Assembly (NCBI GenBank): GCA_001774685.1
Contig: MFAS01000001.1
Span: forward strand, 9,268 to 73,267
Direction: 5' to 3'
Origin: Candidatus Collierbacteria bacterium RIFOXYD2_FULL_45_13
GTDB lineage: Bacteria > Patescibacteriota > Microgenomatia > UBA1400 > MFAQ01
Length of the DNA stretch: 64,000 nt
Positions 4,504-48,581 of this stretch are shown piece after piece. Both the position numbers and the translations under genes were made by a program. Each line of letters starts with the position of its first letter. Position 1 is the first letter of the stretch. Under the pieces are notes generated by a model. The model did not search any database. It was given only the letters and a program-made list of their open reading frames with translations, and had not been told where the DNA came from.

Positions 4504-5574
4504 CTACTGATGTTCTTTTAGGAACTCACCGGTCCACATTTCCACATCATTGGCACTGTCAGCCGTCACCAATTTTTTCCTTAGTCCAGAAGAACCATCA
4601 AAACCTTTGGTATATCCCACCAAATGTTTTCTCATTGGAAAAAATTTCATATTGGGAAAAGTTGATTCATATCTAGTTGCATGCTCAGCGGCAACATTCA
4701 GTTTTTCCTGAAGACTGGGGGTATAACCATCTTTTCTCAAAATCCACGGATTACCAATTGCTTCTCTTCCAATCAGAACCCCATCAACTTTTCCTTCAAG
4801 ATCAACTTCTTTCCCATCTTTCAAAACCACTTCAAAATTTACTTTCCCTGTTTTAAGTTCTTGAGTTTTTGAGTTCTTGAGTTCTTTTATGTCCCCATTT
4901 GCCAAAAACTTCGCCCCACTCTCTCGAATGATCTCACCCGCTTTCAATAGTATTTCCCAATCAGCCTCACCGGAATAAAGTTGTTTGAAGGTTCTCCCGT
5001 GCATGGCCACCGCGGGCAGTTCTTGGGAAGCCAAAAACTTCCACCAAGACTCATCCGGCTTGGCACTCCCAATTCTCGTTTTCAAACTTACCGGAATTTC
5101 AATATTTTGATTTTTTGAGTTTTTGATTTTTTGAGTTTTTATATAATCATTTACTCCTTCTCTCGTCGCCTCAATTACCGCCGCCGCCAAGCCCTGGTCA
5201 CGAATGAGACCGGCCCCCCCACCTCTTTTCTCTAACCCAGGTGAGGGACAGCCCATGTTTATATCGATTCCATCAAACCCAAGTTCGCAAATAATCTTTG
5301 TAGCCTCAAAAAAGGAATCCGGATCACTTCCAAAAAGTTGGGCAATTACCGGTCGTTCGGACTCATCATAGATTAAGTCTCTCCAAATTTTATGTTCCAC
5401 CTCGCCTCTTCTTTGAATCCGCCACAATCCTTCAGCACTCACAAACTCTGCATAAATTACATCGGCCAGTCCGTATTTTTTGGCTACAAAGCGCATTGGG
5501 GCATCTGTCACTCCGTCCATCGGTGACAAGCCCACAATTGGATAATCTAGATTTCCCCAAAAACCTTTCTGCAT
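4504..5574 (-). CDS. dus: tRNA-dihydrouridine synthase (Dus family) carrying two in-frame repeat-encoded insertions
   Basis: DGVTDAPMRF...GFDGIDINMGCPSP TIM-barrel motifs. The K/N/S/T/Q-rich insertions are encoded by the 8-nt tandem repeats at 4855-4888 and 5105-5140. Confidence 0.8.
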   Translation of the reverse strand: MQKGFWGNLDYPIVGLSPMDGVTDAPMRFVAKKYGLADVIYAEFVSAEGLWRIQRRGEVEHKIWRDLIYDESERPVIAQLFGSDPDSFFEATKIICELGFDGIDINMGCPSPGLEKRGGGAGLIRDQGLAAAVIEATREGVNDYIKTQKIKNSKNQNIEIPVSLKTRIGSAKPDESWWKFLASQELPAVAMHGRTFKQLYSGEADWEILLKAGEIIRESGAKFLANGDIKELKNSKTQELKTGKVNFEVVLKDGKEVDLEGKVDGVLIGREAIGNPWILRKDGYTPSLQEKLNVAAEHATRYESTFPNMKFFPMRKHLVGYTKGFDGSSGLRKKLVTADSANDVEMWTGEFLKEHQ

Positions 5575-36613: not shown

Positions 36614-37696
36614 TTATATCAACCCCAAATACTTCCTCATCCCTTCATAGAAGGTCATCACCGAATCCAGATCTACCCACTCATCAGCTGAGTGAATCTC
36701 CCCACCCAGCGGCTTATGCATCAGTACCGGTGCCTTGGTCTGGGCAAAATGTCTGGCGTCAGACGCACCGTAAGTTTGTTTCACCGAGATTTTCTTCCCA
36801 AACACCTCTTCCATAACTCCAATATATTTTATAACTTCCGGATCATTTATATCTGTGAAGGTTGGAAGTCCAGTCGACAGTTTGGAAACTTCCATCTCCA
36901 GTCCCAGAGCCTTTATCTTTTCCTCCACTACCGAGATAATACTTTCGATCGAATCCGTCTCTGGATACCTAAAGTCAATTTTCATTTCTGCTTCTGGACA
37001 TACCTGATTTGTCGAAACACCACCATTAATTGTGCCAAGATTCATTGTCGTCTTCCAACTTTCGGTTAGATTGTTGTCACCATAAGTTTTTAGTAACTCA
37101 GACCCCAGCTTAATCAGAGAATCAATTGCGTTCTTACCCAGCCACGGCCTCGAAGCATGGGCCGGTTTTCCCCTGGCCACCAGTTTTAGTTGACACACCC
37201 CTTTTGCTTTATCAACAAAGTTAAGATTCTCTCCCCCGTCGGGAACTATTAATATTTTTGGGGCAAATCCACGCTCCGCCACCACCTTCGCTCCTTCCAG
37301 CCCTCCAACCTCCTCATCGGTGGTAATCATCAGACAAAAATCAACGTTCTTCTCTTTAGCTTCGTTCAAAAGTGCCACTCCCAACGGGATCGAGAACTTC
37401 ATGTCACAAGTGCCCCGGCCAATAGCTTTACCGTCTTCTACTTTCATCTCAAACTGGTCATCCCTTCCGGCCACCACATCCATATGCACCATATAACAGT
37501 ACTGGGGCGAATCACTTTTTTTCACCGACGCTATCATGACTTCGGCTTTTCCATTATAAATTCTCTGAACATCAACCCCTTCCACAATCAAGTCTTGGAC
37601 ATAATTTATAGCCTTTGAATTCTCTTGAATTTCTCCCGATAGCGTCTTCATCGCCACCAAGTCTCTCAGTTGTTTTGTTAAGTCTTCCTTAGTCAT
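36614..37696 (-). CDS. M20 family metallopeptidase/deacylase (ArgE/DapE-like)
   Basis: VHMDVV...GRGTCDMK ... typical M20 metal-ligand motifs. Confidence 0.75.
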   Translation of the reverse strand: MTKEDLTKQLRDLVAMKTLSGEIQENSKAINYVQDLIVEGVDVQRIYNGKAEVMIASVKKSDSPQYCYMVHMDVVAGRDDQFEMKVEDGKAIGRGTCDMKFSIPLGVALLNEAKEKNVDFCLMITTDEEVGGLEGAKVVAERGFAPKILIVPDGGENLNFVDKAKGVCQLKLVARGKPAHASRPWLGKNAIDSLIKLGSELLKTYGDNNLTESWKTTMNLGTINGGVSTNQVCPEAEMKIDFRYPETDSIESIISVVEEKIKALGLEMEVSKLSTGLPTFTDINDPEVIKYIGVMEEVFGKKISVKQTYGASDARHFAQTKAPVLMHKPLGGEIHSADEWVDLDSVMTFYEGMRKYLGLI

Positions 37697-38900
37697 TTTG
37701 TTTAATTAGTTTTATTGCATCTTCCACAAATAATGTTTTTTGTTCCCCTGACCTCATGTTTTTAATTGACACCTTTCTTGCCTGCACCTCGTCACTGCCA
37801 ATCATCACCACGTATGATATTCCCTTTTTATTGGCATATTTAAGCTGCTTGTCGATTTTACAGTCCTCAGGATACAACTCCGTATTTATCCCGGCCGACC
37901 TGAAAGACTGCGCCGTTTCCATCGCCACAACTTTCTGATCGATCGAAAAAGCAACAACCAAAACACTTGTTTTCGTTTGTGTGGTTGGGATCAAGCCCAG
38001 TAACTCAGCCGCTTCCACCGTTCTATCAAATCCGAAGGCAATGCCAGTACCCGGAACTTTTAGTCCTGTTAGCCTCTCCATCAAACCGTCATATCTTTCA
38101 CCACCCCCGACAGAACCCGCCGTGTAATCTTCGATCACTATCTCCCATATCGGACCCTGAGAATAAGAGAATGATCTGGCCAGCGTGGGTTCGAATCGAT
38201 AATACTCGTTACCAAAACCGGATTTTTCAAGATACGTAACGATCGTTTTTATTGTTTCGTCTGGCTTGATGTTTTGTACCTGTTCGAGATACATATCTGC
38301 TTGAATTTTTCCGATCCCTTTACTCAGCATATCCTCAATCACCCCAGCTTCGCCAATCTTTTTGAGTTTGTCTATCGCCACAATTGCTTCATACGGGATT
38401 CCTTTCATTAGGTCCCTGCTGTTGAAAATCAGCACTGGTTTCTTAAAACCTAATGACAAATAAGTATCCAGGTTCTCTGCCATCACCTCAGCGTCAGCCG
38501 TCGCCGTAGCAATCCCAAATATATCTAAGTCGAACTGAGTAAATTCCCGATAACGTCCTCGCTGGGGATTCTCAGCCCGAAAAACAGATTGACACTGATA
38601 ACGGCGAAATGGCATCACAAGAGAGTTCAGGTTATTAGCCACGTAACGACATGTCGGTACGGTCTGGTCATAGCGTAACATCACCTCGCGTCCACCATTA
38701 TCGGTAAATTTGTAAAACAGTTTTTCATCTTCCCCTATTTCACCCTCAAACAGAGCAAACGGCTCAAGCGTTGGTGTTTCAATCGGTTCATATCCCCATC
38801 GTTCAGCCACCTCAACCATTTTGTTTTTCACCCATTGTCGCTTAACCGTTTCTGTCGGCAAAAAGTCACGGAATCCTTTTAATGTTTGTGTGTTTGTCAT
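37689..38900 (-). CDS. hisS: Histidyl-tRNA synthetase
   Basis: LKGFRDFLP, RYDQTVP and FRAENPQRGRYREFTQ motifs. Confidence 0.9.
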   Translation of the reverse strand: MTNTQTLKGFRDFLPTETVKRQWVKNKMVEVAERWGYEPIETPTLEPFALFEGEIGEDEKLFYKFTDNGGREVMLRYDQTVPTCRYVANNLNSLVMPFRRYQCQSVFRAENPQRGRYREFTQFDLDIFGIATATADAEVMAENLDTYLSLGFKKPVLIFNSRDLMKGIPYEAIVAIDKLKKIGEAGVIEDMLSKGIGKIQADMYLEQVQNIKPDETIKTIVTYLEKSGFGNEYYRFEPTLARSFSYSQGPIWEIVIEDYTAGSVGGGERYDGLMERLTGLKVPGTGIAFGFDRTVEAAELLGLIPTTQTKTSVLVVAFSIDQKVVAMETAQSFRSAGINTELYPEDCKIDKQLKYANKKGISYVVMIGSDEVQARKVSIKNMRSGEQKTLFVEDAIKLIKQND

Positions 38901-38950: not shown

Positions 38951-38980
38951 AAACGAAAAAACCTCCATCTGGGGAGGTTT
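38951..38980 (-). terminator. Hairpin terminator (ACCTCCatctggGGAGGT) flanked by A/T runs
   Basis: It follows the stop of the decarboxylase gene on the minus strand. Confidence 0.55.
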
Positions 38981-39088: not shown

Positions 39089-40570
39089 CTACAGCTTCTT
39101 TAGGCGTTCTGAGATCTCCAGCTCTAGGAAAGTTATGAGGTTTTCTACGTCCGCTATATCCGTCCACGGATGCATGGCCACAAACCTAAAGGCGGATCTC
39201 CCGTTGTCTACTTCGTCGTTAGTGGATACATAGTATCCATATTTTTGGTCCACTGCCTGCTGCACATCCCTCACCAAACGTCCGTATCCTTCTTTACTTA
39301 ACCCGAGATTGTTATTCAAACCAATCAGCAAGGTGTTTAGTTCCGGCACATGCAATGGTCTAAGCAAAGTAGAAGCCTTCACTCGATTAAAGCAGTATTC
39401 TGTCAGCTCGAGTGTGTGATCGAGTAGAGCCGCAAAACCATCTTTCCCTAATAGTTTCTCAGTTGCCCAAGTAGCCATCACCCCACCGGCCCCCAGTGAT
39501 CCTTCCACTCTAGCCGCGAAGCCAAAGTTTCTGTTTTCAGGGTCCCCCAACAGTCCTTTATTATCTTCAGGTTGCAAATATCTGGCACTTTTCTGGATCA
39601 GTGCGTGATCTTTTCGATTTTTAAATAGCACCGCTCCGGCTTGATACGGTACATAAAGCATCTTATGTGGGTCAACGGTAATTGAATCGGCCCTATTAAT
39701 ACCCTTGAACAAGTCGCCGCGACTAGATAAGATAAAGGGTCCTCCATAAGCCGCATCTATGTGTAAATGTGTTTTTGTCGCCGATGCCACGTTAGCCAAA
39801 CCTTCCAGGTCATCAACTTCAGCCGTCTCCGTCTCACCCGCCAAGCCTACTAACGCCAACACATGTTCGCCCTTTCGGTTAATCTTCCAGATCGCTTTTT
39901 TTGCCTCTTCGACGTCAGTTTTGTATCCTTTTCGGGGTAGTAGTGTAAGTACTACATTTTCTGTACCTAGTATCACACAAGCCTTATCAATCGAATAATG
40001 TCTCATGTCGTTTACCAAGACATGCATCACAGTCCCGGGTTTCCACTTACCGACTTCCTTTAGTTCTTTAATTTTCTTTTCTCTAGCTACCCACAATGCT
40101 GCCAAGTTCGCTAGAGTTCCGTCAGTCACTATATTTCCACTTGCTTCTCTCTTGTCATATCCAAACATGTCGATAAGCCAGTCCACAGCTTCAAGCTCCA
40201 TTTTGTGTTCAGACATCGAGACTTCTTTGACTATTGTATTGGTGTTCATATATGCTCCCACCAGGTTAGCCAAAATACCCACCTTACCTCCACTGGGATG
40301 AATTTGACCCATAAATTTATGGTCAAACCTTCTGGTAGATGACTCTCTCCGTAACAACTCTCCCATTATTTCAACTAGATCGTCTGAGTCTTTTGATCTT
40401 GACAACCAGTTCTGCGAATTCTCATCCATCTTCTCAATATCACCGCCCGTCGCGTATATCTGTGCCATCACCCTAATAGTATCTGCCCCCAGCTGTGCCA
40501 ACTTCTCCGAGGTTTCCGGCCTTCTGGGGTCAGCAAAATACTCTCTTGCTTGTTCGAATTTTTTGTTCAT
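39089..40570 (-). CDS. PLP-dependent amino-acid decarboxylase, group II (Pyridoxal_deC family)
   Basis: SGNIVTDGTLANLAALWVAREK, HIDAAYGGPF and VDPHKMLYVPYQAG (PLP-binding Lys) motifs. Confidence 0.8.
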   Translation of the reverse strand: MNKKFEQAREYFADPRRPETSEKLAQLGADTIRVMAQIYATGGDIEKMDENSQNWLSRSKDSDDLVEIMGELLRRESSTRRFDHKFMGQIHPSGGKVGILANLVGAYMNTNTIVKEVSMSEHKMELEAVDWLIDMFGYDKREASGNIVTDGTLANLAALWVAREKKIKELKEVGKWKPGTVMHVLVNDMRHYSIDKACVILGTENVVLTLLPRKGYKTDVEEAKKAIWKINRKGEHVLALVGLAGETETAEVDDLEGLANVASATKTHLHIDAAYGGPFILSSRGDLFKGINRADSITVDPHKMLYVPYQAGAVLFKNRKDHALIQKSARYLQPEDNKGLLGDPENRNFGFAARVEGSLGAGGVMATWATEKLLGKDGFAALLDHTLELTEYCFNRVKASTLLRPLHVPELNTLLIGLNNNLGLSKEGYGRLVRDVQQAVDQKYGYYVSTNDEVDNGRSAFRFVAMHPWTDIADVENLITFLELEISERLKKL

Positions 40571-40693
40571 ATTTATTATTAATTACTATTTTTGCTTACA
40601 AAAAAACACCCGTAGGTGTTTTTCCACTAAATATCTTCCCTGCTATATTCCATCTAATCCAAATGTACTACATCCATAAAATTTGTCAATTGG

Positions 40694-41722
40694 TCATCGA
40701 CCGCCTCTGAATCTGCGATCTATACCCTGAATGGCTTCAGCCACGTCAGGCTCTAGCACACCACTCACGATCTTTATCGGTGCTAGCAGTGTTCCCTTTT
40801 TTAATTTTCCAAGTAAAAGCACAGGGAATCCATCCTTGTCGCGGTTTCGGTCAAAGCCACATGGCACAAAACCGAGATTCAGACACTCCATAATACCAGT
40901 CGTATTGGCCGGGCTGGCGCCCAGTGGCACCAGAGTAAACTGAGAACTCGACTCTGCTTCTCTAATAGCCATTTCGAACTTGACTCCAGCTCTGTCTGGC
41001 ACAATCACCGAAAAAGGCAGTTTGTCAGCTACCGTCCACTTCATTTCCTTGGTTGACTCACCCGACCTGATCGACAAATCTCCGCCAAAACTTCTTCTTG
41101 ACATTGCCACCGCAGTTCTCAGGAGCAGCTCACGGCTAGCTCTATCTTCAGGCAAAAATGCAGATAGTCCACAAGGGATTAACTGAGATGAGGAAAAAAC
41201 GAACATTTCTTGCCTATTAGGATTTCCGTGATTAAACGCTGGCACCGCCGCTTGAGGATTCAAACCCAAATGTCTAAAACAAACGATTTGGGTGGCTTCT
41301 CCCGAGGGCACACCACCGAACTCATCCGAAACTCTCACTTCAGCTACCAGTGGGGAATCCGCATTCATCATGTGATGTTGCGCAGCCAACAACATCAACA
41401 GTCCTCCCACCCCGTTTTCCAACGACACGGCCCTTCCCACCTCTACACTCCCATCCGACTGCCTTACCAGTGCCGCCGATCCAATCGGTCTATCGCCTTT
41501 CATCGCAAACCATAGTCTGCAGTTTCCCGATGCAATATCCCGCAAAAGAGAGTCTCTTCTTTTGGTAATTCCGTGTTCAACGTACATGGCAGAAAGTAGC
41601 TGCGTCAACCACTCCGCTTGGATATCTTGTGGCAAATTATCTTCAGGACTAATTATCAATACTTCCTTTGATAACTGCTCGGTTTTTCGCTCTATCACCG
41701 ACTCCACCTGTTCTTTATTCAT
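40694..41722 (-). CDS. Hypothetical two-domain protein with an N-terminal GNAT-like acyltransferase fold
   Basis: RLWFAMKGDRPIGSAALV...ENGVGGLLM is motif-A-like. It sits in a locally GC-rich segment. The start is taken at ATG 41722, because the TTG at 41791 lies inside the leader terminator hairpin. Confidence 0.45.
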   Translation of the reverse strand: MNKEQVESVIERKTEQLSKEVLIISPEDNLPQDIQAEWLTQLLSAMYVEHGITKRRDSLLRDIASGNCRLWFAMKGDRPIGSAALVRQSDGSVEVGRAVSLENGVGGLLMLLAAQHHMMNADSPLVAEVRVSDEFGGVPSGEATQIVCFRHLGLNPQAAVPAFNHGNPNRQEMFVFSSSQLIPCGLSAFLPEDRASRELLLRTAVAMSRRSFGGDLSIRSGESTKEMKWTVADKLPFSVIVPDRAGVKFEMAIREAESSSQFTLVPLGASPANTTGIMECLNLGFVPCGFDRNRDKDGFPVLLLGKLKKGTLLAPIKIVSGVLEPDVAEAIQGIDRRFRGGR

Positions 41723-42085
41723 ATCATTTAGTTTGTATTTTAATAACAAAAAACCCTGGTCAAACCCCAATAAAATATTGGAATTAGACAAGGGTCTTTT
41801 AACAAGACGGTACCACCTTGTTTCTTCACCCTCTCACGATGGTGAACTTCAAAAGTGCTCTGTTTTCCACTAGGGTGACACACTCATTTTCTATGACGGG
41901 AAAGACCCGGACCTTGTTACCAATGTCTGCTCAGGAGGGTTAATTCAACGAATAAAGTCCGGCTTGCTTTCACCACCCGCAAACTCTCTGTTGTCACCTT
42001 TTTTCGCCTACTACTTCTCCTTCAACGCATTTATTAATCTTTTAAAGAATACACAAATTTACCAATTTCATCAGCCCGTGTCAAT
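41723..42085 (-). promoter_or_regulatory. T-box-like leader: promoter, Stem-I-like region with AGAGA and GGUGA motifs, T-box core GGUGGUACCG, and terminator hairpin with U-tract
   Basis: Minus-sense AAGGUGGUACCGUC (+ strand 41806-41820) matches the T-box core GGUGGNACCGCG at 10 of 12 positions. Terminator CCCUUGUC...GACCAGGGUUUUUU lies at 41747-41794. A TTGACA-17-TAAATT promoter lies at 42056-42084. Confidence 0.4.
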
Positions 42086-42105
42086 GGCTGTGTAATTTTT
42101 CTATC

Positions 42106-43323
42106 TTATTTTACCAACTTCAAATACTTCCTCTTCCCTATGCGCACCACGTTTTCACCTTGATTTAGAGGTAGTTCAGCTTCTCCATCAATCCGTTTCT
42201 CGTTCAGATAGATTGCCCCCTCCTTGAGTAAGGTTTTGAACTCCGTGTTGCTAGTCACCAAACCATTGGCCAAGACATAAGCCGCCAGTGAAGCTTCTGC
42301 TCCCAGCACCGGTACTGCAAAATCAACTTTAATCACTGGTGCGTCAGTTCCAGCCATCTTCTCCACCACCGTCTTCCTAAAGTGCTCCTCCGCTAGCGCC
42401 ACCGCTTCATCACCGTGTAGTTCCCGTACGATGATATTTGCCAATTCCTTCTTGAGGTTCATCGGATTCTCTCCTTTTTCCAGACGGGCATTTGCGTCAT
42501 CGATTACCGTTTGCTCAGCATTTGTTCCCATCAGGTAGTATGTGAGTAACACGTCGTCCGCAATCGACATAATCTTGCCATATATCTCTTCAGGTGAATC
42601 CTCGATCCAGATGGCGTTACCCCAAGACTTACTCATCTTGCGACCATCAGTACCGGGTAAAAATCCATTGGCCAAGACAAATGATTCCTTGCCCCTTAGG
42701 TTTTTCTGTAGAGTTCTTCCTGCTTGCATATTAAAAGTCTGATCGGTCCCTCCAAGCTGAATGTCCGTGTCCATAAAGTAGCTGTCGTAGCCTTGCATGA
42801 TGGGGTATAACACTTCCGGCAAACTCACAGGCTTACCTTCAGTCAATCTTTTCTTAATGAGTTCCCTGCTAATAAAGTCATTCAAAGAAAAATTCCGAGT
42901 AAGTTTCAACACATCACCAAAGTTCAGCTTACTCAGCCACTCGCTATTGTGATGCACCTGTACTTTGGAAAAATCCAGAAACTTCGCCGCTTGACTCTTG
43001 TATGTCTGGAAGTTCTCTTCGATCTGTTCGTCGGTCAAAATCGGTCTCTCCGCTTCTTTGTCGGATGTATCTCCCACTTTAGCGGTAAAGTCCCCGATCA
43101 AAAATGTCACGTTGTGACCGAGATCTGCAAGGATCTGTAATTTCCTTAATGGAAAGGCGTGTCCCAGATGGATCCTTGTGGCCGTTGGATCAATCCCTAA
43201 ATAAACATTAAGTTTCTTATCCGAATACAATAATTTACCCAGCTCTACCCGGCTGGGAATAATATTTTCAACTCCCCGAGTCAAAAAACTCTCAATTAAT
43301 TCTTTCTTACTTGCTTCATCCAT
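42106..43323 (-). CDS. tyrS: Tyrosyl-tRNA synthetase
   Basis: HLGH (RIHLGHAF) and KMSKS (RKMSKS) motifs. C-terminal S4-like domain. Confidence 0.9.
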   Translation of the reverse strand: MDEASKKELIESFLTRGVENIIPSRVELGKLLYSDKKLNVYLGIDPTATRIHLGHAFPLRKLQILADLGHNVTFLIGDFTAKVGDTSDKEAERPILTDEQIEENFQTYKSQAAKFLDFSKVQVHHNSEWLSKLNFGDVLKLTRNFSLNDFISRELIKKRLTEGKPVSLPEVLYPIMQGYDSYFMDTDIQLGGTDQTFNMQAGRTLQKNLRGKESFVLANGFLPGTDGRKMSKSWGNAIWIEDSPEEIYGKIMSIADDVLLTYYLMGTNAEQTVIDDANARLEKGENPMNLKKELANIIVRELHGDEAVALAEEHFRKTVVEKMAGTDAPVIKVDFAVPVLGAEASLAAYVLANGLVTSNTEFKTLLKEGAIYLNEKRIDGEAELPLNQGENVVRIGKRKYLKLVK

Positions 43324-43353: not shown

Positions 43354-45327
43354 CTACTCCACTCCCTGTTCATCCAGAATTTGCTTCACCGTCAGTCCTC
43401 TGGCTAACCCGTCTCTCAATATCGGCCAAATTTTATTCGCCACCACCATCTTCGGCCTTCTCACTTTTGTTTTATCTATTATTCCTAGTTCTAACAATTG
43501 CTTTACTGAATAAACATCAAAACCGTTAACAAAAAGAACTTCTTCCATGCCCTGGCTTACAAGTGATTCAGCGACCTTTTTTTGTTCAAGATATTTTAGT
43601 TGATCGGTGGTTGTTACCCTCCCCGATTTATCATCGAGTGAGGTGTGTTCTCTCAACAACCTCATCGCTCTATCATACGCATACTCGAACACTTGACCAT
43701 ATATGTCACCATCTCTAAATACATCTTGTTTACTTTTACCTAATCTTTTTGCCCTGATATTAAAAAATAAATCTAGACAGTCCCTAAAAGTTCCTCCCTT
43801 TTTTCTTAGTTCTATACCCTGAAGATATATGTTTTCAGGATAATTATCGTTACCCGTAATCCGTTTCATGGTGACATCTTCAACATACTTCGCTCCTGCT
43901 TCTTCTAGCACCTCATCTCTACCGCCAGCAGGGTACCTCTTCATTATTGTGAGAGGTAAATCTACAGCATCCCAATTTCTATGGGACAGCAAATGTCCTT
44001 CGATCTCGTGAGCAACCCCGGTGAGGTAAGCTACTAGATCTTTCTTTGATGACTTTGGTATATAAAGGATAGCTCTTTTCTTCGTGTAAGCCATGCCCAT
44101 TTTGCTTTGCGCCGATTTTCTCTTCAGTACATCACAGTCTATAAATCCATACTCTTTCAAGATCCATTGCGCTATTCTTATTTCATCGTCGCTTGTCATG
44201 TCTACTTCCAAAGTCGGCTCAGTTTGACTGGAGGCATCAATATCCCTAACGATTTCATTTATTCTTTCGGTCAGTGCCACTCTATTTCCCCTTTTGTCGA
44301 ACTCTTCACCCACTCCATGCAAAAATCTGTCATACCGTTCCATCCTGGCCGGATTTATGTCAAATATTTCCTTTCCGTCCTTTCCGGAACCAATCCACAA
44401 GAGCATATCATCTGCCAGTTGCTTATTAATATACTTCCGGTAAATGTCCAGAATAAAAACCTTTGCCAATTCTAAGTCATCAGATCCTTGTTCATATTCT
44501 CTTGTCATGTTTTGAATTTCTCTCTTCATCAACCTCAATCCATCCAGCCTTTCTAAATTTCTCTCAGGGTGGGTTAGTTTGCAAAGTTTGTTCAAATTCT
44601 CAATCCGACCCAAGTCTCCGTTGTTATCACGAAAATCCTTACTTGTCTTTTCTCTTGCCCATTCGTCTGTAAACCAATGAATCCGAAGTCTCCATGACAA
44701 ATGTATTGATTTCGGATCAAACTTTTCAAAGGCTTCTCTTACCTCTTCTTCTTCAATTTCACCGTCATCATATTCAAAAGTTCTTTTTATTTCCACTTCC
44801 TCTCCTCTTTCTTCGGACACAATTTTGCTAAGTTTATTAAAATTTATTTCTGCTCCACTTTTCAACTGACCGCTCTCAAAAATATCCTGAAACGTGGCCT
44901 CTCTCATCTCACGCTTAAGCTTCTTCCTCTTTGCTTTTATCTCACCATCATCTTCTGAACCCTTATCCGTGTCTTCTGAGTCTTCGTCTTCCTCATCGTC
45001 TTTTTTTTCACTAGGAATCCCCACACTTTCAAAGATTTCATTCATCCAAGCATGAAGTTCAGTTCCTTGCTTATACATTAGCTCCACCATCGCCTTTCCC
45101 ACACCAGACCGTAAAGCCGCTGGATATACGTCGTGAGTATTTATTTTTATTTTCTTGATTCTTTGGAGCTTTTCAAACAGCTTCTCCTCAAAATCAAGTA
45201 GCTCTTTTTTCTCTTTCTCGCCAAGCACCAGCGGTTCCTGCGGCTCAAAGGCTCCTTCTTGCTCCACAAAGGACGAAGCCCTCAAAGGATATGGAAAAGC
45301 TGGTCCTCTTTCAATTTGGTATGCCAC
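43354..45327 (-). CDS. Large hypothetical protein (657 aa) with an acidic low-complexity N-terminal region and an HExxH zincin-like motif
   Basis: HEIEGH in VAHEIEGHLLSH. DE-rich stretch (EEDEDSEDTDKGSEDDGE). Confidence 0.4.
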   Translation of the reverse strand: MAYQIERGPAFPYPLRASSFVEQEGAFEPQEPLVLGEKEKKELLDFEEKLFEKLQRIKKIKINTHDVYPAALRSGVGKAMVELMYKQGTELHAWMNEIFESVGIPSEKKDDEEDEDSEDTDKGSEDDGEIKAKRKKLKREMREATFQDIFESGQLKSGAEINFNKLSKIVSEERGEEVEIKRTFEYDDGEIEEEEVREAFEKFDPKSIHLSWRLRIHWFTDEWAREKTSKDFRDNNGDLGRIENLNKLCKLTHPERNLERLDGLRLMKREIQNMTREYEQGSDDLELAKVFILDIYRKYINKQLADDMLLWIGSGKDGKEIFDINPARMERYDRFLHGVGEEFDKRGNRVALTERINEIVRDIDASSQTEPTLEVDMTSDDEIRIAQWILKEYGFIDCDVLKRKSAQSKMGMAYTKKRAILYIPKSSKKDLVAYLTGVAHEIEGHLLSHRNWDAVDLPLTIMKRYPAGGRDEVLEEAGAKYVEDVTMKRITGNDNYPENIYLQGIELRKKGGTFRDCLDLFFNIRAKRLGKSKQDVFRDGDIYGQVFEYAYDRAMRLLREHTSLDDKSGRVTTTDQLKYLEQKKVAESLVSQGMEEVLFVNGFDVYSVKQLLELGIIDKTKVRRPKMVVANKIWPILRDGLARGLTVKQILDEQGVE

Positions 45328-45643
45328 AGATATATTCTACAACCTTATAAGTCAAAGGAGCATAACTAGGCTCTTCATTTACTATTTGCCGTCCTTAAAA
45401 TCCGATTGCATCTTCCTTATCAGATTAACCGACCGACTCTTCTTGATTTTGTTGTGAGTTACGCAATGCCACCAAAAATGTCTCTTGTGTATCAAAACCA
45501 TTCATTACCCGCACACGGTCATCCATGCCCATGTCTCCAGAAACTTTTTCATCTGCTTCTCCCATCATGTCTGGCAACCTCATACCGAAGTGTTCACTCT
45601 TTGCTGGTATAAACGACTCGCTTTTTTCCATGATTGGATTGTA

Positions 45644-46828
45644 TCAAAGTTGTGAAACCATCAATCTTTTAATTTCTTCCACATATTTTTCCGGCTCCAA
45701 AAATGGTCCCGCATGAGGACTATTTTCAATTACCGAAACCTCCAAATTCGCTTGTCTTTTTCTGAGATTTCCTAAATTTTGTGAGTTAAATACATCTGCT
45801 GATTCAGTGACTTCATCTTGTCCACCAGAAACCACAGCTAGCCTACCTCGATTTTTGAATCGACCAAAAGTCCCATTCACGTTATCCCGACAAACCTTTT
45901 TCCCCAATTCAACCCAAGTACCAAACTTGATTTTCTTTTGTTCATCCTTGCTTTTATCATCCACAAAAACATATTTAGGCAGATCTTTAAGAAATTTAAG
46001 TAAGTTTAGATTCTCACGGACCATTCCACTTCCAAAATCTTTCTCACTTATATCCTTCGATCCTCCAGGACACATCAAAACTGCATTATTTACTCTGTTT
46101 TCCCTAGTCAAAAAGTTCTCGGCAACCCCACCCCCCGCCGAATACGCCAGCAAATCAAAATCTCCCACAGGAACCAGTTTGTTAATCGCATTTTCAAAAT
46201 AAATACTGTGTGGTTCAAAGTCTTCAGCCTTCTTAACCGCATCAAAAAATTCAGGCGTCTCAAATCCACTAGGCGCGTCTGGATATCCAATCAATAATAT
46301 TTTCCGATTTGGTATTTCTCTGGCCAACTCTCTCACAAAACTATCCATACTTTCTATACCATTACTCGCACCAGGAATGATAACAATTGGTAGTTCTTCT
46401 GTTTCAATTTCCTTGTTCAAAACCACATATTTTGCTCTTTGAACACCCCAGGGAGTTTCTACCTCCAAATCTTGCTGCTCAACAAACTCTCTTTCAATTC
46501 TTATTTTATCCTCGTAATCACCCATAGACTTACTTCTTTCATCCGAGCCAATTTCAGTTTTCCTCGCCTCTTTTGCCTTTCTGTACAAGTCCGCCCTCTC
46601 TCTTCTCATTGGAAAAGTAACTCGTTTTTGACCTAGCTTTTCAGTCGCCAATCCAAACCAATACCAGAAGTTGCCTATCGATTTTTCAATTACCGGCTCT
46701 GCCGAATACTTTTCTCCACCAGCCATGACCGGCCTAGCAGCATCTTCTTCGGAAATTGGACTAATATTTTCAGGCATATCTGGATTATACAGACCTCTCC
46801 TTATCTTCCTTAATAACTTTCTCGGCAA
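45644..46828 (-). CDS. Alpha/beta-fold hydrolase with an N-terminal extension of about 130 aa
   Basis: AYSAGGG nucleophile elbow. IPGASNG precedes it. Confidence 0.5.
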   Translation of the reverse strand: MPRKLLRKIRRGLYNPDMPENISPISEEDAARPVMAGGEKYSAEPVIEKSIGNFWYWFGLATEKLGQKRVTFPMRRERADLYRKAKEARKTEIGSDERSKSMGDYEDKIRIEREFVEQQDLEVETPWGVQRAKYVVLNKEIETEELPIVIIPGASNGIESMDSFVRELAREIPNRKILLIGYPDAPSGFETPEFFDAVKKAEDFEPHSIYFENAINKLVPVGDFDLLAYSAGGGVAENFLTRENRVNNAVLMCPGGSKDISEKDFGSGMVRENLNLLKFLKDLPKYVFVDDKSKDEQKKIKFGTWVELGKKVCRDNVNGTFGRFKNRGRLAVVSGGQDEVTESADVFNSQNLGNLRKRQANLEVSVIENSPHAGPFLEPEKYVEEIKRLMVSQL

Positions 46829-48581
46829 AATCGGACAGTGACATGGATCCCAAATCCTTTTGACCTCTTGCTCTCACGGACACCTGTCCGCTTTCCGCTT
46901 CCTTCTCACCCAAGATTAGCATATACGGCACTTTTGATGCTTCGGCATTTCGGATTTTTTTGCCGAGAGAATCTGCGTCGCTATTTAGCTCTACCCTTAA
47001 ACCCTTCTCTTTTAACTCCTTAACAATTTTTTCAGAATACGCCATTGTTTTCTCGGACACTGGCAATGCCGTTACCTGAATAGGTGATAACCATACCGGA
47101 AATGCCCCAGCATAATGTTCGATTAAGACCATCATTGCTCTCTCCGCAGAGCCCAGGATAGCCCTATGGAGCATCACAGGGTGTTTCTGTTCACCATTCT
47201 GATCGGTATAGACCAAGTTAAATCTTTCCGGCATTACATAGTCTATCTGCAACGTAGACAGTTGCCACTCCCTGCCCAGCGCATCCGTTGCCACCAAATC
47301 CATTTTTGGAGCATAAAAGGCCGCTTCCCCGGGACCATCATAGTATGGAATATTATTTCTCTCCATGATCTCCACCGCCCACTTTTCGACCCTATCCCAC
47401 ACAGCAGGGTCACCCAGGTATTTTTCGGGATGGTCCACATCCCTCGTCGACAATCTGTATTTATATTTAAAACCAAAAGTATCCATCACTTTCTTGGTCA
47501 TCTGCAAAGCTACATCAATTTCGACGTCGACCTGATCCTCCCGGCAAAAGATATGGCAATCGTCTTGCGAAAAAGATCTCACCCGGCCGAGCCCCGAAAG
47601 TTCTCCCGGTTTCTCGTCACGGTAAAGCATAGCAAAGTCCGTTAATCGCAAAGGAAGATCCCGGTAACTTCTTGGTTGCGCCGCATAAATCTGGGTGTGC
47701 TGTGGGCAGTTCATCGGTTTTAGGAACATTTCTTCGTCGGAGTAATTGGACACCACCCGGAACATGTCGCCTTTATATTTGTCATAATGCCCGGAAGTCT
47801 TAAACAGATCGGCCTTCGCAATCTGCGGTGTCCAAACTTGATAGTAACCTTGAGCCGCTTGTACCGACTCCACAAACTCAGTTAGTTTCCTTCGAACAAA
47901 GGCTCCTTTGGGGGAATACAAAGGTAGTCCACTTCCCACTAAATCCGAAAAAGAAAACAGATCCATTTCTTTTCCCAGTTTCCGATGATCTCTTTTCTTC
48001 GCTTCGTCCAATTGCCACATATATTTATCCAGCTCCTCTTGTGTGGCAAACGCCGTTCCATAGATCCTCGTCAGCATCTTATTTTTCTCGTCCCCATGCC
48101 AATAAGCTCCAGCAACAGACAGTAGCTTAAATGCTCCAATCTCCGATACAGAATCCAGGTGCGGTCCGGAACACAAATCCTCGTCGATCACTTTCCCGTT
48201 TGGCAAAGTCATTTGATAGGTCGAAAACTTCTCACCGCGACCAGCAATCTCCTCCACCCACTCCATCTTGTATGGGTTTCCCGCAAAGATTTTTTTGGCT
48301 TCATCGGCCTCAATCTCCCGCCGCACCATCTTCGACTCCGACTTTATTATCCTGGCCATTTCTTTCTCAATCGCCGGAAAGTCTGCTTCGGTTACCTTGT
48401 CATCCAAATCAAAATCAAAATAAAAACCCTCATCCGTCGCCGGCCCCATTGCCTTTTTCAGATTGGGGTAAAGCTTCTGCATCGCCGTATGCAAAACATG
48501 CTCCGCGGTATGCCTGAGCTTCAGCGTATCCTGCTTACTCTCATCCATTTTTATATATTTATCGTCCAGTTTTTTCGACAT
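46785..48581 (-). CDS. thrS: Threonyl-tRNA synthetase
   Basis: 598 aa with class II motifs (HRAILGSAERAMMVLIEHYAG) and N-terminal editing-domain residues. Confidence 0.93.
   Translation of the reverse strand: MSKKLDDKYIKMDESKQDTLKLRHTAEHVLHTAMQKLYPNLKKAMGPATDEGFYFDFDLDDKVTEADFPAIEKEMARIIKSESKMVRREIEADEAKKIFAGNPYKMEWVEEIAGRGEKFSTYQMTLPNGKVIDEDLCSGPHLDSVSEIGAFKLLSVAGAYWHGDEKNKMLTRIYGTAFATQEELDKYMWQLDEAKKRDHRKLGKEMDLFSFSDLVGSGLPLYSPKGAFVRRKLTEFVESVQAAQGYYQVWTPQIAKADLFKTSGHYDKYKGDMFRVVSNYSDEEMFLKPMNCPQHTQIYAAQPRSYRDLPLRLTDFAMLYRDEKPGELSGLGRVRSFSQDDCHIFCREDQVDVEIDVALQMTKKVMDTFGFKYKYRLSTRDVDHPEKYLGDPAVWDRVEKWAVEIMERNNIPYYDGPGEAAFYAPKMDLVATDALGREWQLSTLQIDYVMPERFNLVYTDQNGEQKHPVMLHRAILGSAERAMMVLIEHYAGAFPVWLSPIQVTALPVSEKTMAYSEKIVKELKEKGLRVELNSDADSLGKKIRNAEASKVPYMLILGEKEAESGQVSVRARGQKDLGSMSLSDFAEKVIKEDKERSV

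Follow-up and report, generated by a model that had tools for sequence, protein, structure and literature searches.

Between tyrS and an adjoining gene for a 342-amino-acid (aa) protein, Candidatus Collierbacteria bacterium RIFOXYD2_FULL_45_13 carries a leader RNA of the T-box class, and it is this leader and the genes around it that we analysed. The window, as we call the whole stretch of DNA under study, comprises 64,000 nt (contig MFAS01000001.1, positions 9,268 to 73,267, of assembly GCA_001774685.1), and the features of the window given below with coordinates lie on its minus strand. In the direction of transcription the order is thrS, two AT-rich genes, tyrS, a 383-nt gap, the 342-aa open reading frame (ORF), a group II pyridoxal phosphate (PLP) decarboxylase, hisS and an M20 hydrolase. 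The tyrS gene (42106–43323) encodes the main type of tyrosine–tRNA ligase (TyrRS), scoring 323 bits against TIGR00234 (cut-off 113.8) and matching Pfam tRNA-synt_1b at E 2e-68; it starts only 30 nt past the upstream gene and has no T-box of its own. The 342-aa ORF (40694–41722), whose start at MNKEQ is backed by 48 homologues, codes for a protein with a GNAT fold, and the decarboxylase gene occupies 39089–40570.

A T-box leader between tyrS and the GNAT-fold gene

When the whole window was scanned with Rfam, one cis-regulatory RNA was returned: a T-box (RF00230) at 41787–42034, in the gap between tyrS and the 342-aa ORF. The match extends over the full length of the model (positions 1–219), takes in Stem I, Stem II/IIA-B, Stem III and the antiterminator, and reaches 96.4 bits (gathering score 93; E 6.5e-20). 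The initial annotation, made from the sequence alone, had proposed a T-box-like leader immediately 3' of tyrS with AGAGA and GGUGA Stem-I-like motifs, a T-box core and a terminator with a U-tract, and all of these could be located. They comprise the AGAGA motif (41990–41984), the distal loop GGGUGGUGAAAG (41978–41967), the T-box sequence AAGGUGGUACCG (41819–41808) and the terminator described below; an AGUA box (42017–42009) and the 3' side of the specifier loop, GAAUUAACC (41946–41938), complete the set. Within AAGGUGGUACCG, a UGGU bulge at 41815–41812 could base-pair with the NCCA end of an uncharged tRNA that has A, or by wobble G, as its discriminator. The promoter proposed earlier, TTGACA-17-TAAATT, is likewise present (42056–42084), with an extended -10 TG, and begins 22 nt past the tyrS stop codon; it is a consensus match only, and promoter-like sites of such quality occur in the region at chance frequency (12 found versus 12.6 expected).

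Two competing folds can be drawn for the 3' part of the leader. The minimum-free-energy fold ends in a long composite terminator hairpin, GACCCUUGUC ... GACCAGGGUUUUUU, followed by U6 (41796–41748; -24.3 kcal/mol). A truncated leader folds as the antiterminator ACAAGG[UGGUACC]GUCUU-GUUAA-AAGAC-CCUUGU (-9.6 kcal/mol). The strand AAGACCCUUGU is common to both, being the 3' strand of the antiterminator and the 5' strand of the terminator, and terminator and antiterminator are mutually exclusive. As the leader matches RF00230 above the gathering score and an alternative fold can be formed, we conclude that the T-box is real.

Conservation of base pairing agrees with this. In an alignment of Stem I from 15 lineages, 16 of the 19 consensus pairs show compensatory changes (RNAalifold). 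Between the window and L008, a relative whose GNAT protein is 89% identical, one pair of the distal helix has changed on both sides from U-A to C-G, and a second Stem I pair has gone from U.G to C-G. Since pairing has been kept between these two, the structure of Stem I is still under selection in the clade to which they belong, the one with an AAC specifier (see below). We consider it likely that the leader is a functional class-I (transcription-attenuating) T-box riboswitch, a single estimate that covers the whole of the explanation developed in this text.

The specifier codon

The specifier was read with the frame rule of TBDB, in which the last five bases of the loop are considered and the frame leaving one base before the helix is preferred (PMC7778990). 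By the Stem I alignment, the helix under the specifier loop is GGAG/CUCC, and in the window the canonical frame is then AAC (41941–41939), with an unpaired C (41938) after it. This frame is UAC, a Tyr codon, in 13 lineages with a GNAT leader and also in L040, making 14 related leaders. A UAU triplet that had been noted earlier in the candidate specifier region is ruled out as the specifier, as it sits in the upper Stem I helix.

The UAC loops take the forms GAA-U-UAC-C, GAA-A-UAC-C, GAA-UU-UAC-U, GAA-AU-UAC-A and GAA-AUU-UAC-U, which differ in how long the linker behind GAA is and in whether C, U or A follows the codon. The window and its closest relative (L001/L008) share the loop GAA-UU-AAC-C, which is equal in length to GAA-UU-UAC-U. 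AAC may have originated by a U-to-A substitution at codon position 1 or by insertion of an A into a shorter loop of the L009 type, and MAFFT alignment places it as such an insertion; with either route of change the canonical frame is still AAC, an Asn codon. Where a T-box precedes a synthetase gene, it corresponds to the amino acid of that ligase (PMC2494555), and this, together with UAC in the relatives, makes tyrosine the ancestral specificity. Judging from the codon, the sensor in the lineage of the window has most likely exchanged tRNA-Tyr for tRNA-Asn.

The probable target is a GNAT-fold protein of a small family

The 342-aa protein yielded no significant match when compared with Pfam, NCBIfam and PDB sequences, and no domain was found by Pfam and NCBIfam in 10 remote members of its family. 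A search of 5.8 billion proteins returned 79 homologue clusters, none of them named beyond 'hypothetical protein'; a source organism is given for two (Candidatus Collierbacteria and an unclassified bacterium). When 1.84 billion representatives were searched exhaustively with a profile, the family came to only 83 proteins.

Its structure was predicted with AlphaFold2 (AF2) from 49 sequences, giving a predicted local distance difference test score (pLDDT) of 95.4 and a predicted template modelling score of 0.92. When the N-terminal half was compared with the PDB using Foldseek, 193 matches at E<=1e-3 were obtained, the best to a GNAT at E 1.6e-6 and probability 1.0. The 50 best matches listed are all acetyl- or acyl-transferases, aligned over approximately 150–190 columns. 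The best matches include PaiA, the tabtoxin resistance protein 1ghe and the ArsN/phosphinothricin acetyltransferases 5jtf, 6m7g and 5wph, and two tandem-GNAT entries (2wpw, 2wpx) are among the matches. The predicted model thus confirms the GNAT fold that had been assigned to the N-terminal half. As for the second domain that had also been proposed, the C-terminal 158 residues modelled alone (pLDDT 94.6) gave weak hits, nearly all of them to GNATs, with a best E of 8e-3; a degenerate GNAT-like second domain is therefore plausible.

Residues that are invariant or at least 90% conserved concentrate N-terminally (Y47, H50, E94, G96, R97, G104, G106, E128, R130, H165 and E172). In the loop after strand beta-4, G104 is present in >=90% of sequences and G106 is invariant, and G104-x-G106 aligns with the coenzyme A (CoA)-binding loop of RibT, although the comparison of the family profile with the PDB is marginal (RibT, E 0.11). 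The Q/R position of the Q/R-x-x-G-x-G/A loop is not conserved in the family, and the C-terminal half has no such loop.

T-box, GNAT, M20 and tyrS form a recurrent operon

Forty related loci from Collier-, Ames-, Roizman- and Woesebacteria were compared using tblastn and nhmmer. In 15 distinct lineages the GNAT gene is directly preceded by a T-box, in some with a small kinase gene in between (see below); at the GNAT gene of three others (L005, L033 and L038) none was found. The commonest operon consists of T-box, GNAT, M20 (ArgE/DapE-type) and tyrS. The order GNAT-M20-tyrS is seen in L004, L006, L014–L020, L026, L027, L032 and L034–L037, and in the deepest clade the operon always lies between pheST/PBP1 and recG. 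Across the family, the partners of the GNAT gene are thus an M20 deacylase and tyrS, not the decarboxylase with which it had been paired in the window. The GNAT-adjacent M20s form an orthologous group of their own, 38–59% identical to one another. The M20 of the window (36614–37696) was rejected as the conserved partner of the GNAT gene: it is only 26–31% identical to the GNAT-adjacent M20s and is orthologous to a distant M20 in L012. The window tyrS is 55–60% identical to the tyrS of the GNAT-M20-tyrS operons. In the clades of the window, L009 and L022, tyrS is found upstream of the T-box, outside the operon, and the T-box stays with the GNAT gene. This indicates that the GNAT gene is a genuine member of the regulon and no passenger of a tyrS operon.

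Several related CPR (candidate phyla radiation) leaders reach 54–83 bits against RF00230, under the gathering score; those of L001, L004, L006, L040 and L032–L037 either fall within this range or are missed entirely at the Rfam threshold. A clade-specific nhmmer profile finds the sub-threshold leaders at E 1e-20 to 1e-64. Leaders of this kind would consequently be missed by standard annotation, and the T-box class may be under-annotated in the CPR; a full-text literature search returned no paper discussing T-boxes in CPR or Patescibacteria.

A subset of the leaders has an altered 3' part. In L022, L023 and L024 (~5179–5400) and in L026 (~5194–5400), Stem I and the UAC codon are kept and the nhmmer match ends before the T-box sequence. 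A pattern search of these leaders for the T-box motif GG(U)UGGN did not find it, and the GGUGGUACC antiterminator has seemingly been replaced by two consecutive hairpins with U-tracts. These leaders may be degenerate, or attenuators that work differently.

Some of the related loci carry further genes. A small P-loop kinase, weakly similar to shikimate kinase, gluconokinase and AAA_33 proteins, lies between T-box and GNAT gene in L017 (5460–5999) and L026 (5380–5994) and is present in L033 (6244–6795). Two TyrRS-type genes within approximately 10 kb are seen in L014, L026, L040 and the P0091 locus, and L014 has a TrpRS-like gene as well. The TyrRS copies of the relatives fall into four sequence groups, and all copies keep HIGH and KMSKS-type motifs and score above the tyrS cut-off. 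The operon TyrRS of L026 (8129–9982; 617 aa) has at its N-terminus a B3_4 domain (E 1.2e-24). This domain, of the editing type, is that of the PheRS beta subunit, and it suggests a proofreading function added to a TyrRS.

L040, the complete Woesebacteria genome CP066686.1, carries a tRNA-Tyr(GUA) gene (1251–1323) with discriminator A73, 134 nt upstream of its T-box leader (1457–1692), which has a UAC specifier and a UGGU bulge. This tRNA is only 73 nt long and has a 5-nt variable loop. Bacterial tRNA-Tyr normally has a long variable arm. The L040 tRNA might be a dedicated one, paired with one of the TyrRS copies.

The decarboxylase and the spacer that precedes it

The assignment of the next gene to the Pyridoxal_deC family (group II) held: PF00282 matches with 133 bits (cut-off 27; E 1.2e-38), and the PLP-lysine motif ...TVDPHKMLYVP... 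is present. None of the NCBIfam equivalog cut-offs is reached (score/cut-off): 163/606 bits for PanP, 135/299 for MfnA (TIGR03812), 135/900 for diaminobutyrate (DABA) decarboxylase and 99/905 for TdcA (TIGR03811). The protein is ~25–30% similar to several characterised subfamilies and about equally distant from the decarboxylases acting on DABA, Lys, Glu, Asp and aromatic amino acids (Trp, Tyr). Being both equidistant and far below the cut-offs, it is assigned no substrate by homology.

Gene context is more informative. The decarboxylase falls in a clade specific to Patescibacteria (CPR), whose members adjoin TyrRS genes in seven of the eight Microgenomates contexts examined, the window included. 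In L012 a TyrRS paralogue is followed by the decarboxylase; in L026 the decarboxylase comes first and a TyrRS paralogue follows; L014 has the order T-box, GNAT, M20, decarboxylase, TyrRS; and the P0091 locus also has a TyrRS-adjacent copy. In L040 a T-box(UAC) is followed by PPDK_N, HD, decarboxylase, M20 and TyrRS, with an EamA transporter and another TyrRS farther on. In L039 the TyrRS-adjacent decarboxylase is followed by genes for chorismate mutase, prephenate dehydratase, an aminotransferase, DAHP (3-deoxy-D-arabino-heptulosonate 7-phosphate) synthase and prephenate dehydrogenase. The exception is L033, with no TyrRS-type gene within 7 kb of the decarboxylase. No GNAT homologue was found in the decarboxylase modules of L039 and L040. 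The full set of aromatic amino-acid genes beside the TyrRS-decarboxylase pair of L039 (7123–11359) is unusual for such bacteria. These contexts suggest that the decarboxylase is linked to tyrosine and lend comparative support to the parallel with tyrS/tyrosine-decarboxylase loci that had been drawn for the window, as does the UAC T-box operon of L040. A literature search combining Patescibacteria and tyrosine decarboxylase returned nothing on the subject.

In the window, the GNAT gene and the decarboxylase are separated by a spacer of 123 nt (40571–40693). Right after the GNAT stop codon lies a promoter-like site, TTGACA-16-TACATT (40662–40689), that is invariant in related clades. The further terminator expected in this interval is found as a terminator-like hairpin, AAAAACACC-UACG-GGUGUUUUUUU with U7 (40600–40623), approximately 30 nt before the decarboxylase ATG; the hairpin is invariant across related clades in the form AAAAACACC-NCG-GGUGU + U7. 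The spacer, with a mean column identity of 86%, is better conserved than the GNAT protein, which is 77% identical between the window and the L009 clade. Judging from these elements, the hairpin would end the T-box/GNAT transcript, and in the window the decarboxylase is probably outside it. The spacer also contains a mini-ORF beginning AUG-GAA/AAA-UAU (MEYSREDI* in the window, 40653–40627), whose Tyr codon is only suggestive.

Base composition and neighbouring genes

The GNAT and decarboxylase genes had been described as locally GC-rich, and horizontal acquisition had been suggested on this ground. Over 48 ORFs of the window, GC averages 0.446 (sd 0.030). The 342-aa gene has a GC of 0.472 (z +0.9; GC at third codon positions (GC3), z -0.3) and the decarboxylase gene one of 0.453 (z +0.2; GC3 z -0.2). 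Neither stands out: with all z-scores within ±1, a GC-rich island is ruled out, and so is horizontal transfer as read from GC-richness. The contrast seen in the initial annotation arises because the two genes upstream of tyrS, between it and thrS (46785–48581), are AT-rich. This pair (45644–46828 and 43354–45327) has a GC of 0.40 and GC3 z-scores of -1.7 and -3.0, and comprises a gene for a protein of 657 aa that matches no family and an unassigned ORF of 394 aa. In the close relative L008, tyrS directly follows thrS with no genes between. If anything has been inserted into the region recently, it is these AT-rich genes (43354–46828), not the GNAT and decarboxylase genes. On the other side of the decarboxylase, a terminator-like hairpin (38959–38980) lies in the interval before hisS (37689–38900).

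Proposed mechanism and alternative explanations

In the mechanism that we propose, transcription would start at the promoter-like site past tyrS or read through from tyrS, and Stem I would capture a tRNA via its anticodon and elbow. The free NCCA end of an uncharged tRNA would pair with UGGU of the T-box bulge and thereby stabilise the weak antiterminator against the much stronger terminator, letting polymerase enter the 342-aa gene; with charged tRNA, transcription would stop at 41748. The ancestor would have been a tyrosine (UAC) T-box, which in most Microgenomates heads the operon of tandem-GNAT, M20 deacylase and tyrS. In the Collierbacteria lineage, tyrS lies upstream and the M20 partner has gone; the T-box most likely controls no gene but that of the GNAT protein, and the specifier would have changed from UAC to AAC at the first codon position, with a shift from tRNA-Tyr to tRNA-Asn.

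From established T-box biology we infer that uncharged tRNA induces transcription of the GNAT gene. Such induction would imply that the target helps to restore tRNA charging, and it is possible that it does so by N-acylating a compound that competes with the synthetase. We propose with low confidence that the substrate N-acylated by the enzyme is an amino acid, amine or analogue related to tyrosine, because the enzyme would be induced at low charging, has a deacylase partner, occurs with duplicated TyrRS genes and has among its nearest structural neighbours acetyltransferases that detoxify amino-acid analogues.

Several observations weigh against this account. The tRNA genes of the window are for tRNA-Ile only; none for tRNA-Tyr, tRNA-Asn or tRNA-Thr is present with which the specifier could be matched. 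A tRNA scan of 32 related loci likewise found none in 31, L040 being the sole exception. In most leaders the base after the codon is C or U, not the canonical purine, and an ACN (Thr) triplet abuts the helix in every leader, that of the window included. Nor is there an obvious rationale for an Asn-sensing switch on a gene family tied to tyrosine. With respect to the target, the curated GNAT sequence models of Pfam and NCBIfam do not match the 342-aa protein, and acyl-CoA-dependent N-acyl transfer by its N-terminal domain is inferred from the modelled fold and the context only. Finally, the promoter-like site of the decarboxylase lies upstream of the terminator-like hairpin, so that the decarboxylase may have an attenuator of its own in the spacer, and some read-through from the T-box transcript into the decarboxylase may occur.

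The last point bears on the proposal, made in the initial annotation, that the T-box co-regulates GNAT protein and decarboxylase as a module producing and modifying an amine, for example by converting Tyr to tyramine and then to N-acyl-tyramine. The two genes are indeed adjacent and co-directional in the window and in the clades of L001, L002, L008–L011 and L013; in L040 the orthologous decarboxylase lies within a UAC T-box operon, in L014 it belongs to the run of genes that starts with T-box and GNAT, and intrinsic terminators can leak. In the window, however, the invariant U7 hairpin and a promoter-like site of its own, also invariant, stand between the decarboxylase and the GNAT gene and speak against joint control. 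In most lineages, moreover, the GNAT gene has M20 and tyrS as neighbours without a decarboxylase, the decarboxylase modules of L039 and L040 are without a GNAT homologue, and it would be counter-intuitive to induce a tyrosine-consuming enzyme while tRNA-Tyr is uncharged. Altogether we find such co-regulation improbable, while the data speak neither for nor against the making and modifying of an amine as such. It is also unlikely, though worth keeping in mind, that the switch still senses tRNA-Tyr, either by tolerating an A-A mismatch at position 1 or because the loop presents its bases differently. Tyrosine is the theme across the whole family, the UGGU bulge suits a discriminator A73 such as that on the L040 tRNA-Tyr, and L009, the closest clade with UAC, agrees with the window in its gene order. 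Against this, T-boxes generally need Watson-Crick pairing between specifier and anticodon (PMC7778990), and for B. subtilis tyrS a single base change in the specifier suffices to switch specificity (Grundy and Henkin, cited in PMC2494555). AAC is, moreover, common to two species-level lineages in which stem pairing has been kept.

A specifier that is ACN (Thr) throughout the family, directly abutting the lower helix, would dispense with any change of specificity, and ACC, ACU or ACA does stand directly 5' of the helix in 16 of 16 leaders. This frame leaves no unpaired base after the codon, in contrast to the canonical architecture, and has the lowest priority in TBDB (PMC7778990); its third position varies between C, U and A, whereas T-box specifiers have a strong codon preference, and the operons contain tyrS, while T-boxes of synthetase genes match the amino acid of the ligase (PMC2494555). 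As a tRNA-Tyr gene also adjoins the leader in L040, we regard a threonine specifier as very unlikely. The same strong doubt applies to the view that the leader is left over from an ancestral tyrS operon, has ceased to sense tRNA and acts only as a constitutive attenuator or leaky terminator. Consistent with a relic, tyrS has left the operon, the specifier of the window is no longer UAC, and the related leaders of L022–L024 and L026 are apparently without an antiterminator; yet the leader of the window matches RF00230 over its full length and above the gathering score, with every motif intact, and its Stem I pairing has been kept relative to L008.

We thus favour a working T-box that most likely now reads tRNA-Asn. 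As a riboswitch it is of a known class, and the novelty lies in its target family and in a tyrosine-centred gene set in the CPR. Few hints at what an unknown gene does can be read from sequence, and the specificity of a T-box is among them. In the present case it points to a protein family that is restricted to the CPR and, in 13 lineages or more, linked to the charging of tRNA-Tyr. Duplicated TyrRS genes are unexpected in symbiont genomes of ~1 Mb, and the leader of the window, which has kept its stem pairing while UAC became AAC, provides a natural example of a specifier change. Speculatively, and with no great expectation that all of it will prove right, tandem-GNAT, M20 deacylase, P-loop kinase, group II decarboxylase and two or three TyrRS copies could form a Microgenomates regulon not described before that senses tRNA-Tyr charging, its sensor being retargeted to tRNA-Asn in the lineage of the window. 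Such a regulon could serve in defence against an antimetabolite or inhibitor directed at TyrRS (through N-acylation, hydrolysis and spare synthetases) or form a pathway to a new tyrosine-derived metabolite. This offers a concrete biochemical hypothesis for organisms that are beyond culture.

Comparison with known systems

The closest parallel for the leader is the T-box of Bacillus subtilis tyrS, the archetype of RF00230. Both have a Stem I with K-turn, an AGUA/GAA S-turn specifier loop, an AG bulge and a distal loop, and both have a UGGN antiterminator bulge, a competing intrinsic terminator and, ancestrally, a tyrS-linked UAC codon. The leader described here differs in its host, a CPR bacterium (Collierbacteria), in the pyrimidine that follows the codon in most family members and in the AAC frame of the window. 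Its first target is also of another kind, an unannotated GNAT-fold protein and no synthetase, biosynthetic enzyme or transporter.

The tyramine (tyrosine decarboxylase, TDC) cluster of Enterococcus and Lactobacillus is organised as T-box(UAC)-tyrS-tdcA-tyrP-nhaC (PMC3315439). The loci described here likewise combine a TyrRS gene and an adjacent group II decarboxylase with a T-box attenuator, and in L012, L026, L039 and L040 a second TyrRS copy is directly beside the decarboxylase. Unlike in the TDC cluster, the decarboxylase is no TdcA orthologue by the TIGR03811 score given above, and there are no TyrP, NhaC or transporter genes at the locus of the window. The T-box of the window lies downstream of tyrS, before the GNAT gene, and the neighbours are GNAT, hisS and M20.

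With regard to the GNAT-fold protein, some of the best structural counterparts of its N-terminal domain are N-acetyltransferases of amino-acid analogues, TTR (tabtoxin resistance protein) and ArsN/PAT (phosphinothricin acetyltransferase), at a sequence identity of only 11–18%. MccE and RimL acetylate mimics of aminoacyl-adenylates (PMC3817062), and by this precedent it is an attractive hypothesis that the protein would neutralise a competitor directed at a synthetase. In contrast to all of these enzymes, the 342-aa protein has a second, degenerate domain. In this it resembles tandem GNATs with one active domain, such as MshD and the clavulanate protein 2wpw, which have two domains and a recognisable CoA loop in one; here it is the N-terminal domain that keeps the G-x-G loop. 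The association with an aminoacyl-tRNA synthetase paralogue and a deacylase recalls that of MshC, MshD and MshB in mycothiol synthesis. The TyrRS paralogues, however, retain HIGH, KMSKS and the tRNA-binding region at the C-terminus, and so resemble true synthetases more than MshC-type ligases.

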